Program-made: the position numbers and the translations under genes
Notes under the pieces: generated by a model
What the model saw: the letters and a program-made list of their open reading frames with translations, nothing else
Databases searched by the model: none
Told to the model about the DNA's origin: nothing
Assembly (NCBI GenBank): GCA_027022365.1
Contig: JALVYU010000026.1
Coordinates: 480,001 to 544,000, forward strand
Reading direction: 5' to 3'
DNA: 64,000 nt
Source: Desulfurococcales archaeon
GTDB lineage: Archaea > Thermoproteota > Thermoprotei_A > Sulfolobales > Desulfurococcaceae
In this document: in pieces, positions 31,593 through 46,370 of the stretch
Position numbering within the stretch: position 1 is the first letter of the stretch
How the letters are laid out: each line of letters starts with the position of its first letter

Positions 31593-31934
<342 letters not shown>

Positions 31935-34498: not shown

Positions 34499-35032
34499 AT
34501 GAGCTCGGTTAAGGCTAAGCGTTTGAAACAGGAATTCCGTAGCAAGTGGCGTGATGGCGTTATCCGTGAATGGATTGTTAAGCAGCTGCTAGACCTGATA
34601 TTCCTACAGAAGAAGCTACCATATAGGATCCTATGGACTGGTGTAGGGGCTGGAAACGCTGAGCATGTAGATGAAAACTATGATTCACCATTAAACGCCT
34701 TCGACCTGGTTATAGTTAATGAAAACATGAAGATACTAGCATACCTAGAAGTAACGGGTACAAATGATCTCTGCAGGGGAGAAGAACTATGTATTGGTGC
34801 CTGGAAGCTCTTCAAGGCTGAGCGCTTCAATGTTCAGGATAAGGTATGGTATATCCATGTATTGAGTAGCAAGATCCCTATCAGGGTAATTAGTTATGCT
34901 AGGCTGAAGAAGATAAGTAGCTTCAGAGTACTACAGGAAACAAGCCTAGTACATGGAAAATTCTATTGTTCACCTGTAAACAAGTGGGGTTCGATCAGCG
35001 ATCTAATAAGATGGCTCAGGGTGAGAAAATGA
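34499..35032 (+). CDS. putative PD-(D/E)xK-fold nuclease
   Basis: REWIV helix, FDLVI...AYLEVTG, W-K-L motif; canonical Lys absent. Confidence 0.45.
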   Translation: MSSVKAKRLKQEFRSKWRDGVIREWIVKQLLDLIFLQKKLPYRILWTGVGAGNAEHVDENYDSPLNAFDLVIVNENMKILAYLEVTGTNDLCRGEELCIGAWKLFKAERFNVQDKVWYIHVLSSKIPIRVISYARLKKISSFRVLQETSLVHGKFYCSPVNKWGSISDLIRWLRVRK

Positions 35033-35463: not shown

Positions 35464-36256
35464 AGAAAGCTCTCCACTTTAGTTCTTGTTTAAGCTTCTT
35501 CCACTCCTCATAGATGTAATCCATTATTTTACTCGGGCCTATTTCACGAGAAGCCATTATCAGTTTAGTGTATAGGTTTAGGTAAGCATTTCTTATCTTC
35601 TCGTATTCATTATAGTTAGGGGTTCTCAGCACAATGTGATCTACATATATGTTTGCACTATCCCAGTAGAATTTACCCCATTCCGTATATCTTTCTCTCC
35701 TAACTTGTATCTCTGCAATGCTCTGGGGAGTCTTATGGTTAGATGTCCCGTTCCTTATCATTCTTACTCTGAACTTATAGAGATTACCATTATTCTTGAT
35801 GTTTCGTGGTAAACTATACTCGCTAGTCATAGTCATTAGCACAGCTCCGATATTAACTCTTAGCGTCTCAAACGCTCCACGAATACCGATACTCATAGGA
35901 TGCCATGAAGTCCTTTTCAACAGCTCCATCCAAATACCCGCATCATCCCAGATAAGAATGGGTATCCATATATTGTTTCTCTGCAAATAATCAACGGCTT
36001 GTTGAAAATCAAAGGGAGTAAACACTATAAACTTGAGAACTTGATCCCAATCTCGGATAAACTCGTAAGCCACTTTCATAGCATAAATACTCTTGCCCGC
36101 ACCAGTCTTACCATAGATCCCAACTATTGTACCACTATTATAGGTCTTTATCTCGATAAACAAGAGCCTACTAAGGTTCTTTCTAGGCTTAGCAATGTTT
36201 AAACTAGGTAAGGGTATGGGGGTACCCCCCTCAATATATGTCAATTTTTCTACCAT
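35453..36256 (-). CDS. P-loop ATPase, fusellovirus B251-like
   Basis: GKTGAGKS.YA.KVA, IPILIWDDAGIW, RNG....TP.S.A.I match SSV1 B251 as recalled. Confidence 0.8.
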   Translation of the reverse strand: MVEKLTYIEGGTPIPLPSLNIAKPRKNLSRLLFIEIKTYNSGTIVGIYGKTGAGKSIYAMKVAYEFIRDWDQVLKFIVFTPFDFQQAVDYLQRNNIWIPILIWDDAGIWMELLKRTSWHPMSIGIRGAFETLRVNIGAVLMTMTSEYSLPRNIKNNGNLYKFRVRMIRNGTSNHKTPQSIAEIQVRRERYTEWGKFYWDSANIYVDHIVLRTPNYNEYEKIRNAYLNLYTKLIMASREIGPSKIMDYIYEEWKKLKQELKWRAFYEE

Positions 36257-36687
36257 TCACCTTCTCCCTCAAATGTTTCTTGCCTACGCTTTATACGTGA
36301 AAGACTAATGTTTTGGAGTATTCTCCAGGCTCTGCCGCCTGCTATCGCTATGAGTTCTTTGACGCCCTTTCTCTTGTGTGCTCTCTTAAAGATGACATAG
36401 TTTCTAATGAAGTTGATTAGGATTGGGTCTGGTATTAGCTCGCTTATAGCCTTAAGCGTTGCCAGTGCTTTTACTTCTCCGCCCGATAATTCCGTAAGAG
36501 TATACTTGGCTAAGCCCCTTGGATTAACCAACAACTCCACTGCTTTCTTCTGTCCCGCTGCGAGATCTCCTTCGAGGCCTTCCCAGAAGTCTTCTTCCTC
36601 ATCATCGAGTATCGGTAGACTAAAGTCCTGTATATCCAAGTCATCGGCTTCTTCTTTTTCTTTCCTTTTCTTCTTAGACTTAGCCAT
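36250..36687 (-). CDS. fusellovirus A154-like protein
   Basis: Acidic N-region, AVELLVNP...LSGGEV, K.KG.KELI; directly upstream of B251-like gene as in SSV1/pSSVx. Confidence 0.6.
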   Translation of the reverse strand: MAKSKKKRKEKEEADDLDIQDFSLPILDDEEEDFWEGLEGDLAAGQKKAVELLVNPRGLAKYTLTELSGGEVKALATLKAISELIPDPILINFIRNYVIFKRAHKRKGVKELIAIAGGRAWRILQNISLSRIKRRQETFEGEGEW

Positions 36688-36688
36688 G

Positions 36689-36817
36689 TTATTCGCCCCA
36701 ATAATTACTCAACTCCTCATAGTCTCTCTCGTTAAGCTCTTCCCTCAATAGAAAATATTCTAGTAGAAAAGCCGCCTTTCCCAAGGCTTTAAGAATCATG
36801 AACCTATAATACGCCAT
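36689..36817 (-). CDS. provirus small protein (42 aa, not in track)
   Basis: MAYYRFMILKALGKAAFLLEYFLLREELNERDYEELSNYWGE; GGTGA RBS; fills operon gap. Confidence 0.6.
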   Translation of the reverse strand: MAYYRFMILKALGKAAFLLEYFLLREELNERDYEELSNYWGE

Positions 36818-36822
36818 TTTAT

Positions 36823-37368
36823 TCACCTTATGATAATGCTATGACCGAGCAATGGTAAAACGAAGAAGATCAACAATATGATGATAACCATTCCAGTAAA
36901 CATATATAATATAGCTTCTCCCTTTGAGACGGTGATCTTTCCTAGCAATTTATGTATTGAGTGGCTAGCAATGTAGTTGTACAGAGTTCTTGGATTCAAT
37001 ACTACAGGGTTGAGTTTTCCGGTTTTAACATCTTTAGGCGGATCCTCAAACTGGTATAATGCATTAGTATTAGCGTCAAGTATGTAGAGCTGATAAGTGT
37101 TTCTACCCATTCTCAGGAGATATGGTTCCTTCTTCTCGACTCTATACAGCTTGTTCTTATCAACTATTATTGTCCCGTCCTCGAAAACCATAGCGTTTTT
37201 CTTCAACTCTATGATGTCGCCGTTTCTAATCATTACTACAGCTTTACCTATTTTCTTGATCTCGTTCTTGTTCATTGTTTTGCTCGGTAGTTGTGAATAC
37301 ATCACCTTAGCAATCGGATAGACAAGGATCAGCAATATCACTAGTAGGAAATACAGTATCCATTCCAT
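36823..37368 (-). CDS. membrane protein with N- and C-terminal TM helices, possibly SSV C166-like
   Basis: TM-soluble-TM topology; PY...MGR and LNP...KLLG segments (similarity from recall). Confidence 0.55.
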   Translation of the reverse strand: MEWILYFLLVILLILVYPIAKVMYSQLPSKTMNKNEIKKIGKAVVMIRNGDIIELKKNAMVFEDGTIIVDKNKLYRVEKKEPYLLRMGRNTYQLYILDANTNALYQFEDPPKDVKTGKLNPVVLNPRTLYNYIASHSIHKLLGKITVSKGEAILYMFTGMVIIILLIFFVLPLLGHSIIIR

Positions 37369-39184: not shown

Positions 39185-39424
39185 ATGTTTGGAAGAGTGA
39201 AGGCTAAATTATCTGGCCTTAGGCTTCGAGCAAAGATGATAAAGTACATGGCAGTAATAGCCTTAACACTTGGAGAAACAACTACTATTGACAGCACACA
39301 GTTCACTAACATGATAAACAGCATGCTACCGCTCATACTAGGAATGATAGGTATAGCATTACCGCTAATCTTCATTAAGTACATTATGCGTTTCCTCGAG
39401 AAAATCCTCAGCGGATTCGGCTAA
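39185..39424 (+). CDS. putative major coat protein precursor (79 aa)
   Basis: Basic leader, hydrophobic VIALTLG, polar/acidic ETTTIDST, TM helix, basic amphipathic end; GGTGA RBS. Confidence 0.6.
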   Translation: MFGRVKAKLSGLRLRAKMIKYMAVIALTLGETTTIDSTQFTNMINSMLPLILGMIGIALPLIFIKYIMRFLEKILSGFG

Positions 39425-39463
39425 CGCTAACATCACAGTAGCAATATTAATAGGTGATCAGGA

Positions 39464-40135
39464 ATGCAAACAAGCAAGCTAATACCATTTGTTTTCATAA
39501 TTGTCCTAACACTTGGCATTACTTGGGGAGCTTATCAAACACTTGAACAGATAAGTATCCCCTATACAACGTTTAGATCAACTGGTATAACCTGGTATCC
39601 GTTAAGCAAAGCATATGACACGAATCATTTGCTAATAGGTATTCAGCCAGTCAATATACAGTTTAACAGTACAGCAACACAGAAGAAAATTGTAATAGAG
39701 ATTGCTGGATCTGATGCTTCAAACCATCTCGACCTGGCGTTCTATGATAATGGCATAATAGATATTGTTGGAACAACATCATCGGGAGCAACAAAATTAG
39801 CTGATACATCAAGCAGCGGCGTAAAATGGCAGGATACAAACTTTATCATCGTTGAGATAACAGGTACGACTGTAAAGGTAGAGACGGATAACGGAACCGT
39901 ATTGGCAAGTGTTACATGGGATAACATGCCCTCGACAATAGAGCAGATCGGCGGTAGTGCCGGAGTAGATTCGTTAACTGGCGGAACGGTTTATGTTGCT
40001 ATACTATATGATCCATACCAGTCAATAACTAGCTCGATGACATCAATGTTTCCACTGGTTGCTGTGATGATAGGTATTGCAATACCACTACTGTTCCTGA
40101 AGATGATCATGAGATTCCTAAACAAGATATTCTAG
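39464..40135 (+). CDS. coat-protein paralog with inserted beta-sandwich (ConA/LamG-like) domain
   Basis: C-terminal 29 aa are 20/29 identical to the 79-aa protein; shared LTLG near N-terminus. Confidence 0.7.
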   Translation: MQTSKLIPFVFIIVLTLGITWGAYQTLEQISIPYTTFRSTGITWYPLSKAYDTNHLLIGIQPVNIQFNSTATQKKIVIEIAGSDASNHLDLAFYDNGIIDIVGTTSSGATKLADTSSSGVKWQDTNFIIVEITGTTVKVETDNGTVLASVTWDNMPSTIEQIGGSAGVDSLTGGTVYVAILYDPYQSITSSMTSMFPLVAVMIGIAIPLLFLKMIMRFLNKIF

Positions 40136-40172
40136 TCTTTTTTCTTCACTAACATTATTATGGGGGTACGCA

Positions 40173-41150
40173 TTGAAGTATTTGCCTGTATTTTTGATGA
40201 TACTCATAGTTTTATCGGGTCTAGGAATAACTTTTCTGAATAATAGTCCCAATTACAGCTATAGCTTGGATAAGAATGATTTGAGGCATTTCCTTGAATC
40301 GCAATATATACCAAGCATTGGATTGCTCAGAGCAGCTACAACTACATATCCTGATAACATTACAATATATATTTCCAACGATAATGTCTTGGCTGCGAGA
40401 GCCTTAGCCGTTCTCGGATCACCATTAGCTTCAAAGGTCTTAACAATTCTAAATAATAATTTCAGCGGTGGATGGAATGGCAAAATAGATATACTGCTTG
40501 GTAGGGATATACCGGACAACTTCTACTCTAGCTATAACGAGCTTGTTAAAGAAGATGACGGTTACAGAATTGTCTGGGAAAAACTAAATACTTCTATCAT
40601 CATAACTGACTGGTATAACTACGCTGATCTCCTAGTATATCATGCCCTGGACAGACTATTATGGGGTTCTAGGCCTGAGGCCGAGAAATCGTTTCTTAAT
40701 TTAACCAAAATGTGGGATGGATATGGTTTCCGGGATAAGCCTACAAGCGAAACCGGTGTCTATGCAGTCTACAAGTGCGCTCTTTTCATTTATCTCTATA
40801 GAGCGCTAGAAGCAGCAGGTTCTAACGTTATCTACCGTTATAGAGATATCTATGAGAAATGCCTAGAAATAATAGCAAAAGCACAGGACGCCATTAAAGG
40901 CGGTATTCATACAGATTATCGTATAGTTAATGGAAGAATTATTATCCAAGGAGACATGAATACTGAGACGACCAGCATGGTAGTATTAGCATTGTACTCA
41001 AACTATCCAGTCGTGATAGGATCCCATGCTAAATCGTCTCAGAGACTAGTGCCTGGATATGTCTATAGTTTTGGATATAATATTTTGGCGTGGACATTAT
41101 CATTTGTTGTATTTGGGGCAGTTACTAGATTCTTAAGGAAGCTGATGTAA
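40173..41150 (+). CDS. secreted alpha-helical (alpha/alpha barrel-like) protein with C-terminal anchor
   Basis: Signal peptide; WDG.G, GG...Y, NTETT motifs; ends TM + RFLRKLM. Confidence 0.65.
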   Translation: MKYLPVFLMILIVLSGLGITFLNNSPNYSYSLDKNDLRHFLESQYIPSIGLLRAATTTYPDNITIYISNDNVLAARALAVLGSPLASKVLTILNNNFSGGWNGKIDILLGRDIPDNFYSSYNELVKEDDGYRIVWEKLNTSIIITDWYNYADLLVYHALDRLLWGSRPEAEKSFLNLTKMWDGYGFRDKPTSETGVYAVYKCALFIYLYRALEAAGSNVIYRYRDIYEKCLEIIAKAQDAIKGGIHTDYRIVNGRIIIQGDMNTETTSMVVLALYSNYPVVIGSHAKSSQRLVPGYVYSFGYNILAWTLSFVVFGAVTRFLRKLM

Positions 41151-41210
41151 GCATTCATAAGCTTTTCGCCAAAAATATGTTCCGCTCCTACCCCTTTCCT
41201 AGGTGGGATA

Positions 41211-42809
41211 ATGCATAAGATCCTAGCCATAGTCCTAATAGGCCTACTGCTCCTGAGCCTACCACTGCAAATAATGATGACAAACGCAAGCAGTACGCCA
41301 TCGCTATCATCGATTAAAAACGCTGTAAAACAAGCCTTGCATTATATTCTTAACATTAAACGTCAACTAGGAACATGGTATGTAATTAGCGAGTATCCAG
41401 CATTACCCATAGTAGTCCATGATGATGACGTATATGTTTATGGTTCATGGCATCATGATATATGGTTTATACCAGGATATTGGTACAACAAAGATGGATT
41501 AAGCTTCACAGGTAAAGTTAGCGGTGGTTCAATAACAACGACTGAATCAACCAGTTATATATCGACAACATATACATACTATATAGACATAATCTACAGC
41601 ACATCATATCATGAATATCCCTTGGCAAAACTCAAGGTTGAGGAAATAAGAACGTACTATTATGGTTCTCATAGTTATGACTCAAAAGTAAAGATCAGCG
41701 TAGAAGATGTTGACACAGATACAAATATACAGAACGCAGACCTATATGTTGGCGGCATCTATTTGGGTAGGCTTGGCGAAGCCTCGATATTTGAGACTAG
41801 TATACCCACAGTATTACCTGCAATGAGGACATCCGTTAGACACGTCGATATGCTCGCTCCCCTAGTCCTTAATGCTCTGAAAACAGATACGACAATAATG
41901 CATATGATAGCTCAATTCGTTAATGACACAATATCATATGTATGGGAAGGAAACCCGCCGCCTACACATGTTTATCTTGGACAATACCCAGACTATAGAC
42001 TGTACTATATATACGACATATACATGCCCATGCTCACCGGACTTGAATACATGGTTAATATCAAACAGCCTAACGGCGATCACTTCTGGGATGCTAAATG
42101 GTTCAGTTATGGTCTAGGATATGATAGAATACGAGACATGTTCAAAGTCAACGGATATATTGAATCGAATTACCCGGCTTATCCATATAGAAGCAAACTT
42201 GTTGGCGGGGCAACGGCTAGCGGCGCTCTACACTTGAATGGCGGCGATCTATTTCTATTTGCGGTGAGCAAAATTAATGATCCATTATATTATGCTTGGT
42301 GGGGACTGTACTATTGTAGCCAAGGAAAATACAATGATGCAGTAAATGAATGGAACAAGATAGTTAGTCATTGGGATGGAAACGGAATATATCTATCCGG
42401 AGAGCGAGGATATAGTACAGTAAGACTTGCGGCCGCTATAGCCTTAGGTTCAATCCTTGCGGGGATGGGTAAAATATCTTGGGACAAGATCGACCAAATG
42501 GTAAATGTCCTACTACAGCTCCAATGGACAGGGATAGGACATTATTCGCCTGATGGCTCAACAGTATACACAATTGTAAAGCCTGATCATATTGGTGGAT
42601 TCCTAGTAAGCTATGGGCCTATAGGAAGCTATGGGTTTGTCCCGTTCAGGCCTAGACTGATCGAAGATATACTAGATTATGCAAGCTCGCCACCAGAGTA
42701 CGGTGGTCCGCTACCCACTAACGCTGAAACAACATTATTGTCAATGATAGCATTAATGCAGTATGCTTACTGGAGATATGACGTGACTCCGGCCGAGCTT
42801 TTACAATAA
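41211..42809 (+). CDS. large secreted protein, C-terminal half paralogous to 40173-41150
   Basis: Signal peptide; WDGNG, GGFLVSY, NAETT motifs; no C-terminal anchor. Confidence 0.7.
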   Translation: MHKILAIVLIGLLLLSLPLQIMMTNASSTPSLSSIKNAVKQALHYILNIKRQLGTWYVISEYPALPIVVHDDDVYVYGSWHHDIWFIPGYWYNKDGLSFTGKVSGGSITTTESTSYISTTYTYYIDIIYSTSYHEYPLAKLKVEEIRTYYYGSHSYDSKVKISVEDVDTDTNIQNADLYVGGIYLGRLGEASIFETSIPTVLPAMRTSVRHVDMLAPLVLNALKTDTTIMHMIAQFVNDTISYVWEGNPPPTHVYLGQYPDYRLYYIYDIYMPMLTGLEYMVNIKQPNGDHFWDAKWFSYGLGYDRIRDMFKVNGYIESNYPAYPYRSKLVGGATASGALHLNGGDLFLFAVSKINDPLYYAWWGLYYCSQGKYNDAVNEWNKIVSHWDGNGIYLSGERGYSTVRLAAAIALGSILAGMGKISWDKIDQMVNVLLQLQWTGIGHYSPDGSTVYTIVKPDHIGGFLVSYGPIGSYGFVPFRPRLIEDILDYASSPPEYGGPLPTNAETTLLSMIALMQYAYWRYDVTPAELLQ

Positions 42810-42865
42810 TCGAGCCAAAAATATCATATAATCTTTTTTCTTAAATTAGGAACCTGTAGGGGTGA

Positions 42866-43141
42866 ATGGCTTTGGAAACCGAACATTATATCGCTATTGG
42901 TTTTTTATCAACAGCATTACTACCATTCATCCTATTATTGTTCCCCATTGCTTATAGGATTGGGTGGTATTGTTTTAATTACTTCTATGTGGTCTTACCA
43001 TTGACTTATCTTGTGGCCTTCATGCTTTGGAGATGGAAAAAGAAGATATTATCAACAATAACAGCAGTCTTAGGCACAAGTCTGACAATCTACGGATTCT
43101 TATTATATTTAATAGCTCTAGCCCTTATCTCGGAATACTAG
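42866..43141 (+). CDS. small 3-TM membrane protein (possible immunity factor)
   Basis: Three hydrophobic segments; directly follows the secreted pair. Confidence 0.65.
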   Translation: MALETEHYIAIGFLSTALLPFILLLFPIAYRIGWYCFNYFYVVLPLTYLVAFMLWRWKKKILSTITAVLGTSLTIYGFLLYLIALALISEY

Positions 43142-43164
43142 AATCCTTCTTAAGCTCATATTAG

Positions 43165-43959
43165 TTGTTTTTAGCTGACTGTGTCATCTATGTTTTTTAC
43201 TATCTATATTCTCTGGTGGGTAGCATGAATCTGAAGTTTCTAGCTCTAGGCATTATTGTTGTAGCGTTTATCAGCGTATCTGTAGGAGCAACAGCTAGTA
43301 CTGTTAGCATTAGTTTTACAAAGGATTTGTCAAAACTAGCGATCGATCATGAGGTATGGTATAGTACAGAGTTCAATGTATGTGATTCTATTCCCGCAAC
43401 TTGGGTGCATCCCGGCACATGGGAGATAACATATAGTGATATAGATGTCAAGAGTGGCTGGGTACAGGTAGATGTTTACACGCCTGATCTCAGCAACTAC
43501 TTGTTCAGCATAGAGTTCAAAGACAACAAGCAACTAGTACTTTCATACTATGCCAAAGATACATTGTATCATAGACTAGTACTTGGTAACTGGACAGCGG
43601 GCAACAAGGTAGTAGCAATATACAATGCTAGACAATTAATAATAAAGCTATACAATAACGATAAGCTCATTAATTCAACAACAATAGACGACATAGCTGT
43701 TAGGATAAAGATCTCGAAGACAGGAATATGCCTCGTTGCGACAGATATACCTACATGCCATGCAAGCGGGACGATGACGGTCAAGATAACATACATAAAA
43801 AACACGCAAAACACGCAACAAAATACACAACAGGTTCAAGAAGCAGTTAAACAGACAACGAAGACGGTTACGAACACAGCGGTTCAAACGATTACGCCAC
43901 TAGCAGGTCTAGGAATGCTGTTCGCTTTTCTGAGGAAACTCGAGGGACTTGCAAGGTGA
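43165..43959 (+). CDS. secreted beta-sandwich protein with T/Q linker and C-terminal anchor (likely start ATG 43225)
   Basis: Paralog of 39464-40135; NTQ repeats; ends TM + AFLRKL. Confidence 0.7.
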   Translation: MFLADCVIYVFYYLYSLVGSMNLKFLALGIIVVAFISVSVGATASTVSISFTKDLSKLAIDHEVWYSTEFNVCDSIPATWVHPGTWEITYSDIDVKSGWVQVDVYTPDLSNYLFSIEFKDNKQLVLSYYAKDTLYHRLVLGNWTAGNKVVAIYNARQLIIKLYNNDKLINSTTIDDIAVRIKISKTGICLVATDIPTCHASGTMTVKITYIKNTQNTQQNTQQVQEAVKQTTKTVTNTAVQTITPLAGLGMLFAFLRKLEGLAR

Positions 43960-44989: not shown

Positions 44990-45355
44990 TTGAGGCGAGA
45001 TATGATGAAAGAGACTAGGCTGAAAGTGTTAAATTCCTATCCAAGAAACTATTTAATGGGGATTATAGTGAGCATCGAAAAACAAGACATAGACATCATT
45101 GTGTTATATAAGCTTCTAAAGATAATCTATGAAAACCAAAACATATCGCTTACAGACTTATTCAAAAAGTATCGAGAAACCGAGGGAGTTAAAGTAAACT
45201 ACAATAAGGTAAAGAAGCATATCGAGTATGCAGCTCTAAAAGAGCTAGTAGAGATAAAGAAGGGAAAACCTACCAAGCTATCTATAACCAAAAAAGGAAT
45301 CGACTACATGTTCTTAATGAGCCGTGTCCTCAGCGTTCTCGGCGAACAGATCTAG
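44990..45355 (+). CDS. winged-helix DNA-binding regulator
   Basis: LTDLF...NYNKVKKHIEY....LV......LSITKKG wHTH pattern. Confidence 0.75.
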   Translation: MRRDMMKETRLKVLNSYPRNYLMGIIVSIEKQDIDIIVLYKLLKIIYENQNISLTDLFKKYRETEGVKVNYNKVKKHIEYAALKELVEIKKGKPTKLSITKKGIDYMFLMSRVLSVLGEQI

Positions 45356-46339
45356 GAGATACAGATAGGGCTTGAACGCTTCATAGTACTTCTGGCTTAT
45401 TAGCTTTATATGCTTAATATAGTGTTCCACCTGCACGGTTTCTAAGCGTCCTTGAAGAAGATCCTTTTCGCCATCGTCGAGATACCCAGACGTTATGGCT
45501 ATCCAGGCCTTGCGGAACAACCCTATGTTTATTCCGAACTTGTGTCTTACATGGTCTTTCCAGTTCTCTGTCAATAGGATTGGATGGTATTCGTTGACGA
45601 GCTGGAAAAGCTTTTCCGGAATTAGCGTGATATAGGCTTTCTTCTTAACTCTATCATAATTTAGTACTACTAGGTAGACGCCGTTTAGCTTGATTTTTCT
45701 TAGTGTATTCCAGTTATCTAGCATGTACTTGATTTCCGTGCTTCTTAGTCCGGTAAAGAAGGCTATTATTATTGGTAGCTTGTACTTGGTGTTTCTGTTG
45801 ACTATCTTCTTTATGGTTTCAAGGGCTTGGTCTATGATGCTTATTGCTTCGCCTGTTTCCTTTATCTCGAACTCTAGTATTCTCTTAGTTATTTCTTCGA
45901 TTTTCCTAGGCGGCATGTATTTTCTTAGTAGCTTTGTATTGATTTCGAGATTAATACCGTACATTAACAGAGCGTAATCACGTAAAGCTGGTACGGCTTC
46001 TAGCACTCCCCTTGCTCTGCGATAGTTTAGCTGCTTCATCATAAGCGGGTTCTCAATGATCTTTAGCAGATACTTGCTGCTTGTATACACGTAGATAGCG
46101 TGGCCCCTGGAGCTGTAACGTTGCTTTAACCATGCTAGAAAGTTTGGATCATTCACAATCCTTACCAAAATTTCGGGATGAGAAACTATAGGATTAGAAC
46201 CATTATGGGACGCTTGGTTCTGTGATATCACAGGTATATCACGGGTGATATCACTCTGTGATATAGGCTGTGATATGCCGTGATATGATTCGATCGGATG
46301 CCAACCGAGCGCTCTTCCAGGCTGAGCTACCGGCCCACG
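45314..46339 (-). CDS. integrase C-terminal fragment int(C), tyrosine recombinase
   Basis: FTGLRSTE, KKKAY, FRK, LQGR, EHY catalytic pattern; begins with translated att; joins int(N) in frame to give 403 aa. Confidence 0.9.
   Translation of the reverse strand, partial: RGPVAQPGRALGWHPIESYHGISQPISQSDITRDIPVISQNQASHNGSNPIVSHPEILVRIVNDPNFLAWLKQRYSSRGHAIYVYTSSKYLLKIIENPLMMKQLNYRRARGVLEAVPALRDYALLMYGINLEINTKLLRKYMPPRKIEEITKRILEFEIKETGEAISIIDQALETIKKIVNRNTKYKLPIIIAFFTGLRSTEIKYMLDNWNTLRKIKLNGVYLVVLNYDRVKKKAYITLIPEKLFQLVNEYHPILLTENWKDHVRHKFGINIGLFRKAWIAITSGYLDDGEKDLLQGRLETVQVEHYIKHIKLISQKYYEAFKPYLYLLDLFAENAEDTAH
46222..46286. repeat. GTGATAT/ATATCAC array next to att inside int(C)
   Basis: GTGATAT at 46222, 46245, 46258, 46270, 46280; ATATCAC at 46225, 46236, 46248. 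Confidence 0.85.
46294..46339. repeat. att direct repeat (46 bp), right copy (tRNA-Ala 5' half)
   Basis: Identical to 31703-31748. Confidence 0.97.
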
Positions 46340-46370
46340 TACCCCGGAGAAAACACTATTCACAACCAGC

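Follow-up and report, generated by a model that had tools for sequence, protein, structure and literature searches.

According to the Guttaviridae profile by the international virus taxonomy committee (ICTV), this archaeal virus family has one sequenced member, and APOV1 forms enveloped ovoid particles with one small major protein and two minor ones, has a genome of 13,769 bp that integrates into a tRNA gene, encodes a DnaA-like ATPase and a glycoside hydrolase, and clusters with fuselloviruses in gene-sharing networks. For other archaeal viruses, two sources describe VP1 and VP3 as paralogs that are present in all spindle-shaped viruses (PMC9608457), fusellovirus VP1 as a two-helix hairpin, and the SSV19 tailspike VP4 as a particle protein with an endo-mannanase domain that helices hold to the hydrophobic capsid (PMC9351363). 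Here we examined a stretch of 64,000 nucleotides (nt) of a Desulfurococcales archaeon (contig JALVYU010000026.1, positions 480,001 to 544,000; below "the window", in whose coordinates positions are given unless another locus is named), and in particular its open reading frames (ORFs) at 39185-43959, for which the initial annotation had proposed a natural display system with a common coat-like C-terminal tail on four or five proteins. This segment is predicted to hold the virion/envelope genes of an APOV1-like (Guttaviridae-type) provirus that is integrated in a hyperthermophilic archaeal host, and we consider it quite probable that it encodes a 79-amino-acid (aa) coat precursor and, next to it, a 223-aa paralog in which the same module is fused to a lectin-type domain, together with other proteins that are each anchored separately.

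The provirus is about 14.6 kb long, with 14,591 nt between two 53-nt direct repeats that are 96% identical to each other and form the attachment (att) sites (Table 1), and the G+C content of the block is 0.39-0.40 versus 0.42-0.53 in the flanks. Considering that the integrase ORF at one end and a 113-aa ORF at the other (31593-31934, minus strand) both contain the att-encoded peptide, the integrase gene was split on integration, which is what SSV-type integration would be expected to leave. Nine ORFs of the window match APOV1 ORFs with their order kept, and the same core is found in eight related loci; besides those listed in Table 1, the matches include an 86-aa protein (APOV1 orf20-100) and the 79-aa protein (orf12-85, E value 1e-10, or 4e-4 by tblastn). 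By its size, att sites and integrase, the element agrees with the Guttaviridae type of the ICTV profile (a circular double-stranded DNA, dsDNA, of ~14-20 kb in a tRNA gene with an SSV-type integrase), and by these nine ORFs its gene content and order are Betaguttavirus-like; it is a putative new member of the APOV1 type. The two genomes are alike in plan and gene order, integration into a tRNA gene, type of integrase and length (13.8 versus 14.6 kb), and APOV1 orf11-222 shares the build of the 223-aa protein, with a signal peptide ahead of a beta-sandwich and the coat module behind it. They differ in that the small proteins are only 32-33% identical, the beta-sandwich of APOV1 is of another subtype (20% identity), the gene-3 slot holds a GH99 gene in APOV1 and the 325-aa family in the window, and the 532-aa gene of the window is of the APSV1 type rather than the APOV1 orf9-678 type. 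In the database record of APOV1, no ORF but the integrase carries more than the label of hypothetical protein, orf12-85 and orf11-222 included.

The 79-aa and 223-aa proteins are paralogs. Searching all six frames of the genome that contains the window with the 223-aa protein recovers the 79-aa frame at an E value of 9.7e-7 (60% identity over residues 188-222), and the Smith-Waterman alignment of the last 35 residues of the two proteins has a z score of 17, with a score that none of 2000 shuffles reached. The annotated identity of 20 of 29 tail residues should read 19 of 29, and the LTLG motif common to both proteins is present as described. An alignment of 20 sequences (A3) is conserved from ~15 residues ahead of the membrane helix, including a D-T/S-x-x-M/I-T motif, to the C-terminus. 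The likeness thus begins well before the helix and covers everything after the LG boundary, so it is not merely that of a helix with a basic end, and the fused protein is made up, in order, of a signal peptide, a passenger domain and the mature small protein in full. This bears out the proposal that the 223-aa protein is the 79-aa protein with a large domain added, with the mature module behind a lectin-fold domain, an arrangement that is conserved in related proviruses. Since the 29 tail codons share only 66% of their nucleotides and different codons are used at 9 of the 19 identical residues, the likeness is not due to a recent conversion, and the duplication is old and kept by selection.

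The mature module (~49 aa) has a polar, T-rich N-terminal end, a single membrane helix and an amphipathic basic end, and the hydropathy profile of the whole 79-aa protein shows a weak hydrophobic stretch at the N-terminus and a strong one at the C-terminus. Within the small-protein family, the boundary ...LG | E/Q-T-T is conserved (alignment A6), and similarity to the 223-aa family starts directly past it. Among database proteins, P0138 (182 aa) has three coat-type units in tandem and P0139 (143 aa) has two, with a hydrophobic stretch and an ...A-Q-T boundary ahead of each unit, so that both resemble polyprotein precursors for the small subunit. One 47-aa database form has no pre-sequence. Because homology starts at the boundary, each tandem unit has its own boundary and the 47-aa form lacks the pre-sequence, we infer that the pre-sequence of the 79-aa protein is removed by cleavage. 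The product is a candidate major membrane or coat subunit. Pfam, PHROGs and NCBIfam hold no family for the 79-, 223-, 325-, 532- or 264-aa proteins.

An AlphaFold2 model of the 223-aa protein (built on a 9-sequence family alignment; mean predicted local distance difference test score, pLDDT, 81.1) shows a beta-sandwich with strands in residues 25-182, followed by a single long helix (residues 184-222). Foldseek returned 384 matches to this model in the PDB at E <= 0.001, the top ones (E ~1e-6) being fungal and animal galectins, GH32 C-terminal domains, CBM66, GH16 and neurexin LNS domains, with target-normalised template modelling (TM) scores of 0.56-0.66 at a sequence identity of 7-15%. The ectodomain is therefore predicted to have the ConA-like lectin/glucanase fold (a two-sheet jelly-roll like that of galectins, LamG and CBM domains), and "lectin-like" is correct at the level of fold, while sugar binding may follow from it. 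Two beta-sandwich subtypes were found (A2), one in the window and genome G139 and the other in most other genomes. A tblastn search of a phage collection with the 223-aa protein gave no match at E <= 1.

We then considered how widely the gene pair and the module occur. Across the class (351 genomes), a tail profile made from five sequences matched in 26; its weak hits to membrane proteins of other kinds (E 1e-5 to 8e-3), such as the 250-255-aa proteins of loci L038 and L039 that were matched at their N-terminal helices, were dropped as false positives before pairs were counted. A small gene (74-103 aa) directly followed by a 209-233-aa fused gene was found in nine genomes of nine genera and three families (G000, G139, G130, G161, G081, G066, G284, G270 and G054, the last pair being APOV1 orf12-85/orf11-222), and in all nine the pair heads a block of secreted and anchored proteins; in G122, the 3' end of a fused gene lies at a contig edge. 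The fused tail is closest to the small protein of its own genome in five of the nine genomes, and mean identity is 34% for cognate pairs versus 28% for all pairs. This is suggestive of co-evolution between fused tails and cognate small proteins, in genomes that are related and differ in composition.

Searching 1.84 billion representative proteins with the module gave 23 hits at E <= 0.001, comprising 14 small coat-type proteins or fragments, three complete lectin fusions, four fusion fragments and two tandem-unit proteins, so the varied passengers that the initial annotation expected from such a search did not appear. When a 20-sequence hidden Markov model (HMM) was run on the 1,234 ORFs of 11 provirus loci, it found 18 coat and fused proteins (E <= 3e-14) and one 145-aa protein, with all other ORFs of these loci at E > 3. 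The 145-aa protein (L061, that is G130:C128, 4595-5032; E 5.6e-4) is encoded directly 3' of the coat gene and has a domain of ~100 aa in front of a weakly matching coat-type tail; on a position-specific scoring matrix (PSSM) made from the coat and fused tails alone and applied to 694 C-terminally anchored host ORFs, this tail scores above all 694. It is a putative third, smaller passenger type. Within the searches made, the module was joined only to domains of lectin type, to one small domain or to further coat units in tandem.

The other proteins of the block do not share this module. A tail HMM built from the 79- and 223-aa families, run on the 13,141 ORFs of at least 30 aa in the host genome, matches the 79-aa (E 1.8e-24) and 223-aa (E 1.2e-22) proteins and nothing else; among its 3,439 hits at E <= 1000, the 325-aa protein is absent, and the 264-aa and 34-aa proteins rank 2,909th and 879th. 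Compared with the 79-aa tail, the 325-aa and 264-aa tails show marginal likeness (z 2.2 and 2.1, shuffle fractions 0.041 and 0.052), which spans just 5-7 residues, and the 34-aa tail shows none (z -0.1). Only for the 79/223 pair does tail similarity thus exceed what host membrane anchors show, and no relation of the 325-, 264- and 34-aa tails to the coat module was detected. Archaeosortase-type signals (PGF-CTERM and kin) gave no NCBIfam match at E <= 1 for the 79-, 223-, 325- and 244-aa proteins.

Taken together, the 79-aa precursor would be cut after LTLG into a single-pass membrane protein of ~49 aa, with its polar N-terminal end outside, one helix, and its amphipathic basic end inside, and the 223-aa protein would insert beside this small subunit through the common module, displaying its lectin-type domain at the surface of the particle, possibly as a glycan-binding attachment protein. 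The 325-aa and 244/264-aa proteins would be distinct secreted proteins, each held by its own ordinary C-terminal anchor, and the 34-aa protein would be an unrelated small membrane protein. For the pair, a common anchor that brings the displayed domain next to the small protein is a plausible mechanism, since the arrangement is conserved across related proviruses. A prediction of a complex of two mature small-protein chains with the fused tail, made without controls, scored 0.00 and is no evidence either way.

Systems with a coat protein and a coat protein with an extension occur elsewhere, and the 79/223 pair would work alike. In layout only, the small protein resembles the major coat protein of filamentous phages (signal sequence, mature protein of ~50 aa, polar N-terminal end, one helix, basic C-terminal end), and in phage display a foreign domain is inserted after the signal and ahead of the mature coat. 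Here, in contrast, the fusion is a separate natural gene and the virus has dsDNA and would be an enveloped ovoid by the ICTV profile of APOV1. The inovirus Gp8 family (PF19199, Phage_coatGP8) was matched at E 0.071 by only one of 13 members of the small-protein family, and Pfam His1_capsid at E 0.084, likewise by one of the 13; neither assigns the small protein to a known coat family. Like VP1/VP3 of the fuselloviruses SSV1, ASV1 and APSV1, the pair encodes small hydrophobic capsid-type subunits as adjacent paralogs. The mature module has one helix, unlike the VP1 hairpin, and VP1/VP3 have no displayed domain, unlike the 223-aa protein; hhalign gave a probability of 10.5% over 25 membrane-helix columns, so the small protein does not qualify as VP1-type. 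With SSV19 VP4 the likeness is to the 325-aa protein, whose best, weak structural matches include GH76 mannanases and whose slot holds GH99 in sister proviruses, and it is a likeness at the level of weak structural matches in Foldseek (E >= 4.9e-3, TM <= 0.46).

It is possible, although we hold this only tentatively and as somewhat less probable than its opposite, that the ~45-aa module is a true co-assembly handle by which the lectin paralog is woven among the 49-aa subunits of guttavirus-type particles by means of an identical helix and tail, with the fused tail co-evolving and with at least three passenger types (two sandwich subtypes and the ~100-aa domain of G130) as well as tandem precursors.

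Two sets of observations weigh against the account of a coat precursor with a lectin-fused paralog and separately anchored neighbors. The first concerns the particle, of which the 79-aa and 223-aa proteins are presumed components. The major capsid protein of APOV1 is reported as 10.5-kDa, and calculated masses are 9.35 kDa for orf12-85, 10.72 kDa for orf8-107, 10.78 kDa for orf20-100 and 11.26 kDa for orf13-94. As no mass match singles out the major capsid ORF of APOV1, it is only by inference that the 79-aa protein is taken as the major subunit. The two proteins might instead be proteins of the host membrane (an egress or holin-like pore, superinfection exclusion, or surface modification), with the module marking a common membrane location only. 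This would fit a weak PHROG holin match of the 79-aa protein (E 0.018), but that match is at chance level, the pair heads the secreted and anchored block in all nine genomes, tandem multi-unit small proteins suit a high-copy structural subunit, and APOV1 is enveloped, with its small major and two minor proteins (ICTV profile); we regard a host-membrane role as improbable.

The second set concerns the tails. The C-termini quoted for the 79-, 223-, 325- and 264-aa ORFs are indeed present, and all four proteins have the pattern [FILMV]-L-x-K-[FILM] in their last 14 residues behind a hydrophobic stretch, which in the host occurs in 0 of 490 such ORFs of at least 100 aa and 2 of 1,091 of at least 60 aa, although the pattern was written post hoc, after the four proteins had been seen. 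On the PSSM, the 325-aa tail ranks 12th of 694 with seven columns and 28th with 11, the tail of its G139 homolog ranks 4th, and that of the unrelated GH99 protein of G161 (...RFIKKLI) ranks 5th; therefore a weak shared constraint on the last seven residues is possible in low-GC proviruses. In addition, ...R-x-x-R-K-L-M is kept in close relatives of the 325-aa protein and L-R-K-L-E in the L024 homolog of the 264-aa protein. These observations would favor the original proposal of a short C-terminal tag (a helix with an R-F-L-x-K-L-type end) for sorting or assembly, which would bring together in a single particle the coat, the lectin fusion, the 325- and 264-aa proteins and possibly also the 34-aa one. 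Against it, besides the HMM and pairwise comparisons that leave these tails in the noise, the 264-aa tail ranks 33-89 and the 34-aa tail 86-115 of 694, no better than host anchors, a level that the 325-aa tail (12 to 28) nearly shares; gene-3 tails of high-GC proviruses rank 198, 523 and 673 (the last being APOV1); and homologs of the fused protein itself keep the pattern only loosely (...KTFQKIL, ...RSISKIF). As for the 34-aa ORF, YRLLKLL is present but the full end is ...YRLLKLLWDMF, and the ORF lies on the minus strand, outside the block to which it had been assigned. The endings within the 325-aa family argue in the same direction. This family has 141 homologs, none with a Pfam family, of which 120 listed ones were classified by tail: 61 stop right after the conserved domain without an anchor, 45 are anchored with diverse ends (36 of them other than RKLM-like, and eight of the nine basic-hydrophobic RKLM-like ends belonging to the closest listed relatives), 12 are unclassified and two have other extensions. 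Because half of these homologs lack it and the ends are diverse, the anchor appears to be an optional, lineage-specific addition rather than a conserved tag. A tag common to all of these proteins is therefore very unlikely.

The gene following the fused gene is variable in kind. The 325-aa protein is modeled by AlphaFold2 as helical (pLDDT 92.5), with weak Foldseek matches to alpha/alpha barrels of the GH76, GH88, GH105 and AGE types (E >= 4.9e-3, TM 0.25-0.46); it has no Pfam, NCBIfam or PDB sequence match, and a PDB search with the family profile gave chance hits only. On these weak structural matches it may be a glycosidase-like helical barrel; the group with which it was compared is that of the six-hairpin (alpha/alpha)6 glycosidases. 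This family occupies the slot in the window, G139 and G122, whereas G161, G066, G270 and APOV1 have a GH99-family protein there (PF16317, E 1e-16 to 6e-10) that is unrelated to it. Both types carry a signal peptide (the annotated APOV1 ORF excepted) and a C-terminal anchor of their own, and the difference appears to be a replacement by an unrelated glycan-active enzyme. The GH99 genes are located at L056 9830-10855, L057 9252-10286, L059 7691-8743 and L055 5348-6202 (APOV1 orf10-284). Considering the fold of the 223-aa protein, the weak barrel matches and GH99 in sister proviruses, "lectin-like" and "enzyme-like" were fair labels for the passengers.

Translation of the 264-aa ORF probably begins at codon 21 and yields 244 aa, and the sole database protein found is this shorter form. 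By hhalign, it matches the 223-aa family over 84 beta-sandwich columns (probability 89%, E 2.2e-6) with the tail not aligned, and it is a probable second protein of the ConA-like kind, held by a short anchor of its own. Hydropathy profiles of the 223-, 325- and 264-aa proteins all show a signal-like N-terminal and a hydrophobic C-terminal stretch. Homologs of the 532-aa protein occur in 14 of the 351 genomes; a genome-contig scan with this protein found no relative, and PDB searches with the protein and its family profile gave chance hits. Atlas look-ups scored at most 0.87 for the 244-aa and 0.81 for the 532-aa protein and serve as leads only. The 532- and 325-aa families share a stretch A-x-x-W/F-x-x-[IVL]-x-x-x-W-D-G-x-G followed by Y-S/x-T-x-[RK]-x-A; kinship through this W-D-G-x-G motif was rejected (hhalign probability 6.9%). 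The APOV1 counterpart of the 34-aa ORF lies at L055 7622-7783 (plus strand), where no feature is annotated.

Table 1. Features of the provirus in window coordinates, with the comparisons on which each description is based.
Feature	Position	Strand	Basis
Left att copy		31703..31755	none	53 nt, within tRNA-Ala(GGC) 31669-31745 (-)
ATPase, 267 aa	35453..36256	-	APOV1 orf19-247, 51% identity, E 3e-97
145-aa and 181-aa proteins	36250..37368	-	APOV1 orf18-132 (E 5e-38) and orf17-201 (E 1e-24); kept in related loci
Secreted or membrane protein, 396 aa	37476..38666	+	APOV1 orf16-391, E 6.5e-10; in 8 related loci
Single-pass membrane protein, 34 aa	38663..38767	-	Homologous 35-53-aa ORFs in L020, L056, L057, L060, L061 and APOV1, E 1e-9 to 5e-5
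Basic protein, 99 aa	38767..39066	-	APOV1 orf13-94, E 1e-11; kept in related loci
79-aa ORF	39185-39424	+	C-terminal end ...MRFLEKILSGFG
Putative pre-sequence of 79-aa protein (basic stretch and short hydrophobic stretch, LTLG at end)	39185..39274	+	Family alignment A6
Mature coat-type module of 79-aa protein, 49 aa and stop codon	39275..39424	+	HMM, alignments
223-aa ORF	39464-40135	+	C-terminal end ...MRFLNKIF
Signal peptide and predicted galectin/ConA-like beta-sandwich (residues ~25-182) of 223-aa protein	39464..40006	+	AlphaFold2, Foldseek
Full coat-type module copy (residues 182-223) and stop codon, 223-aa protein	40007..40135	+	Tail HMM E 1.2e-22, alignment A3
325-aa protein: signal peptide, predicted helical barrel-like domain, own C-terminal membrane anchor; ends ...TRFLRKLM	40173..41150	+	AlphaFold2, hydropathy
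Secreted protein, 532 aa, N-terminal signal, no C-terminal anchor	41211..42809	+	APSV1 orf26-534 (37% identity, E 4e-45); ASV1_C806 (E 8e-9)
Multi-pass membrane protein, 91 aa	42866..43141	+	Hydropathy; homologs in L023 and L024
264-aa ORF	43165-43959	+	C-terminal end ...FAFLRKLEGLAR
Shorter (244-aa) form of the 264-aa ORF, with a signal peptide, a probable ConA-like domain, a linker rich in T/Q and a short anchor at the C-terminus	43225..43959	+	
Basic protein, 308 aa	43949..44875	+	APOV1 orf15-259 (E 2e-14) and orf14-121 (E 4e-4); PHROG 38579 E 5.6e-13
SSV-type tyrosine integrase, C-terminal part	45314..46363	-	PF16795 E 4.7e-6; PHROG 5127 integrase E 2.7e-8
Right att copy	46294..46346	none	Within 5' end of integrase ORF

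Contigs from two further hydrothermal vent metagenome studies (X3 record 19, X6 records 26-27) span large parts of the element, including the 79-aa and 223-aa genes, with a few per cent difference. Contigs of four DNA runs start or stop at both att sites (31695-31764 and 46310-46355). Depth in run X1, a possible source, is 294-317 for provirus contigs and 169-204 for flanks, and in run X6 it is 28-34 for the provirus and 133 for the flanks, values that are not to be read as copy numbers; together with the contig ends at att, these contrasts hint at population polymorphism or extra copies. Contig joints between 31699-31702 and 46309-46310 were rejected as empty sites or circles because their sides are only 21-27 letters long and lie in repeated tRNA/att sequence. 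In the left arm, a 177-aa protein (34499-35032, plus strand) matches Pfam VirArc_Nuclease at the gathering threshold (E 5.2e-4, 20.1 bits). The left-arm genes of L061 occur twice on its 15.5-kb contig (257-556 and 12738-13037), 12,481 nt apart and 91% identical along the 300 nt of the reference copy, which could reflect two tandem related elements or assembly wrap-around.

A lectin-fused coat paralog linked to Guttaviridae or APOV1 was not found in the literature searched, outside which lie the original APOV1 paper, a thesis on particle proteins and supplements that may already name capsid genes. Guttaviridae are among the least understood archaeal virus families, and the present comparison shows this family as proviruses across at least nine genera of hyperthermophiles, names a candidate major subunit and shows that the adjacent gene encodes this subunit joined to a domain of lectin fold. 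From this follow concrete candidates for the two minor particle proteins of APOV1 and for host attachment, which the inducible Aeropyrum pernix K1 system is suited to testing. It also indicates that basic-ended C-terminal membrane anchors on neighboring viral proteins are in themselves no shared tag. What results is a concrete assignment, open to testing, within a virus family about which little is known, rather than a new principle. If the module is a true co-assembly handle, it would be nature's heat-stable counterpart of coat-protein display, and Guttaviridae would gain their first assigned attachment protein.

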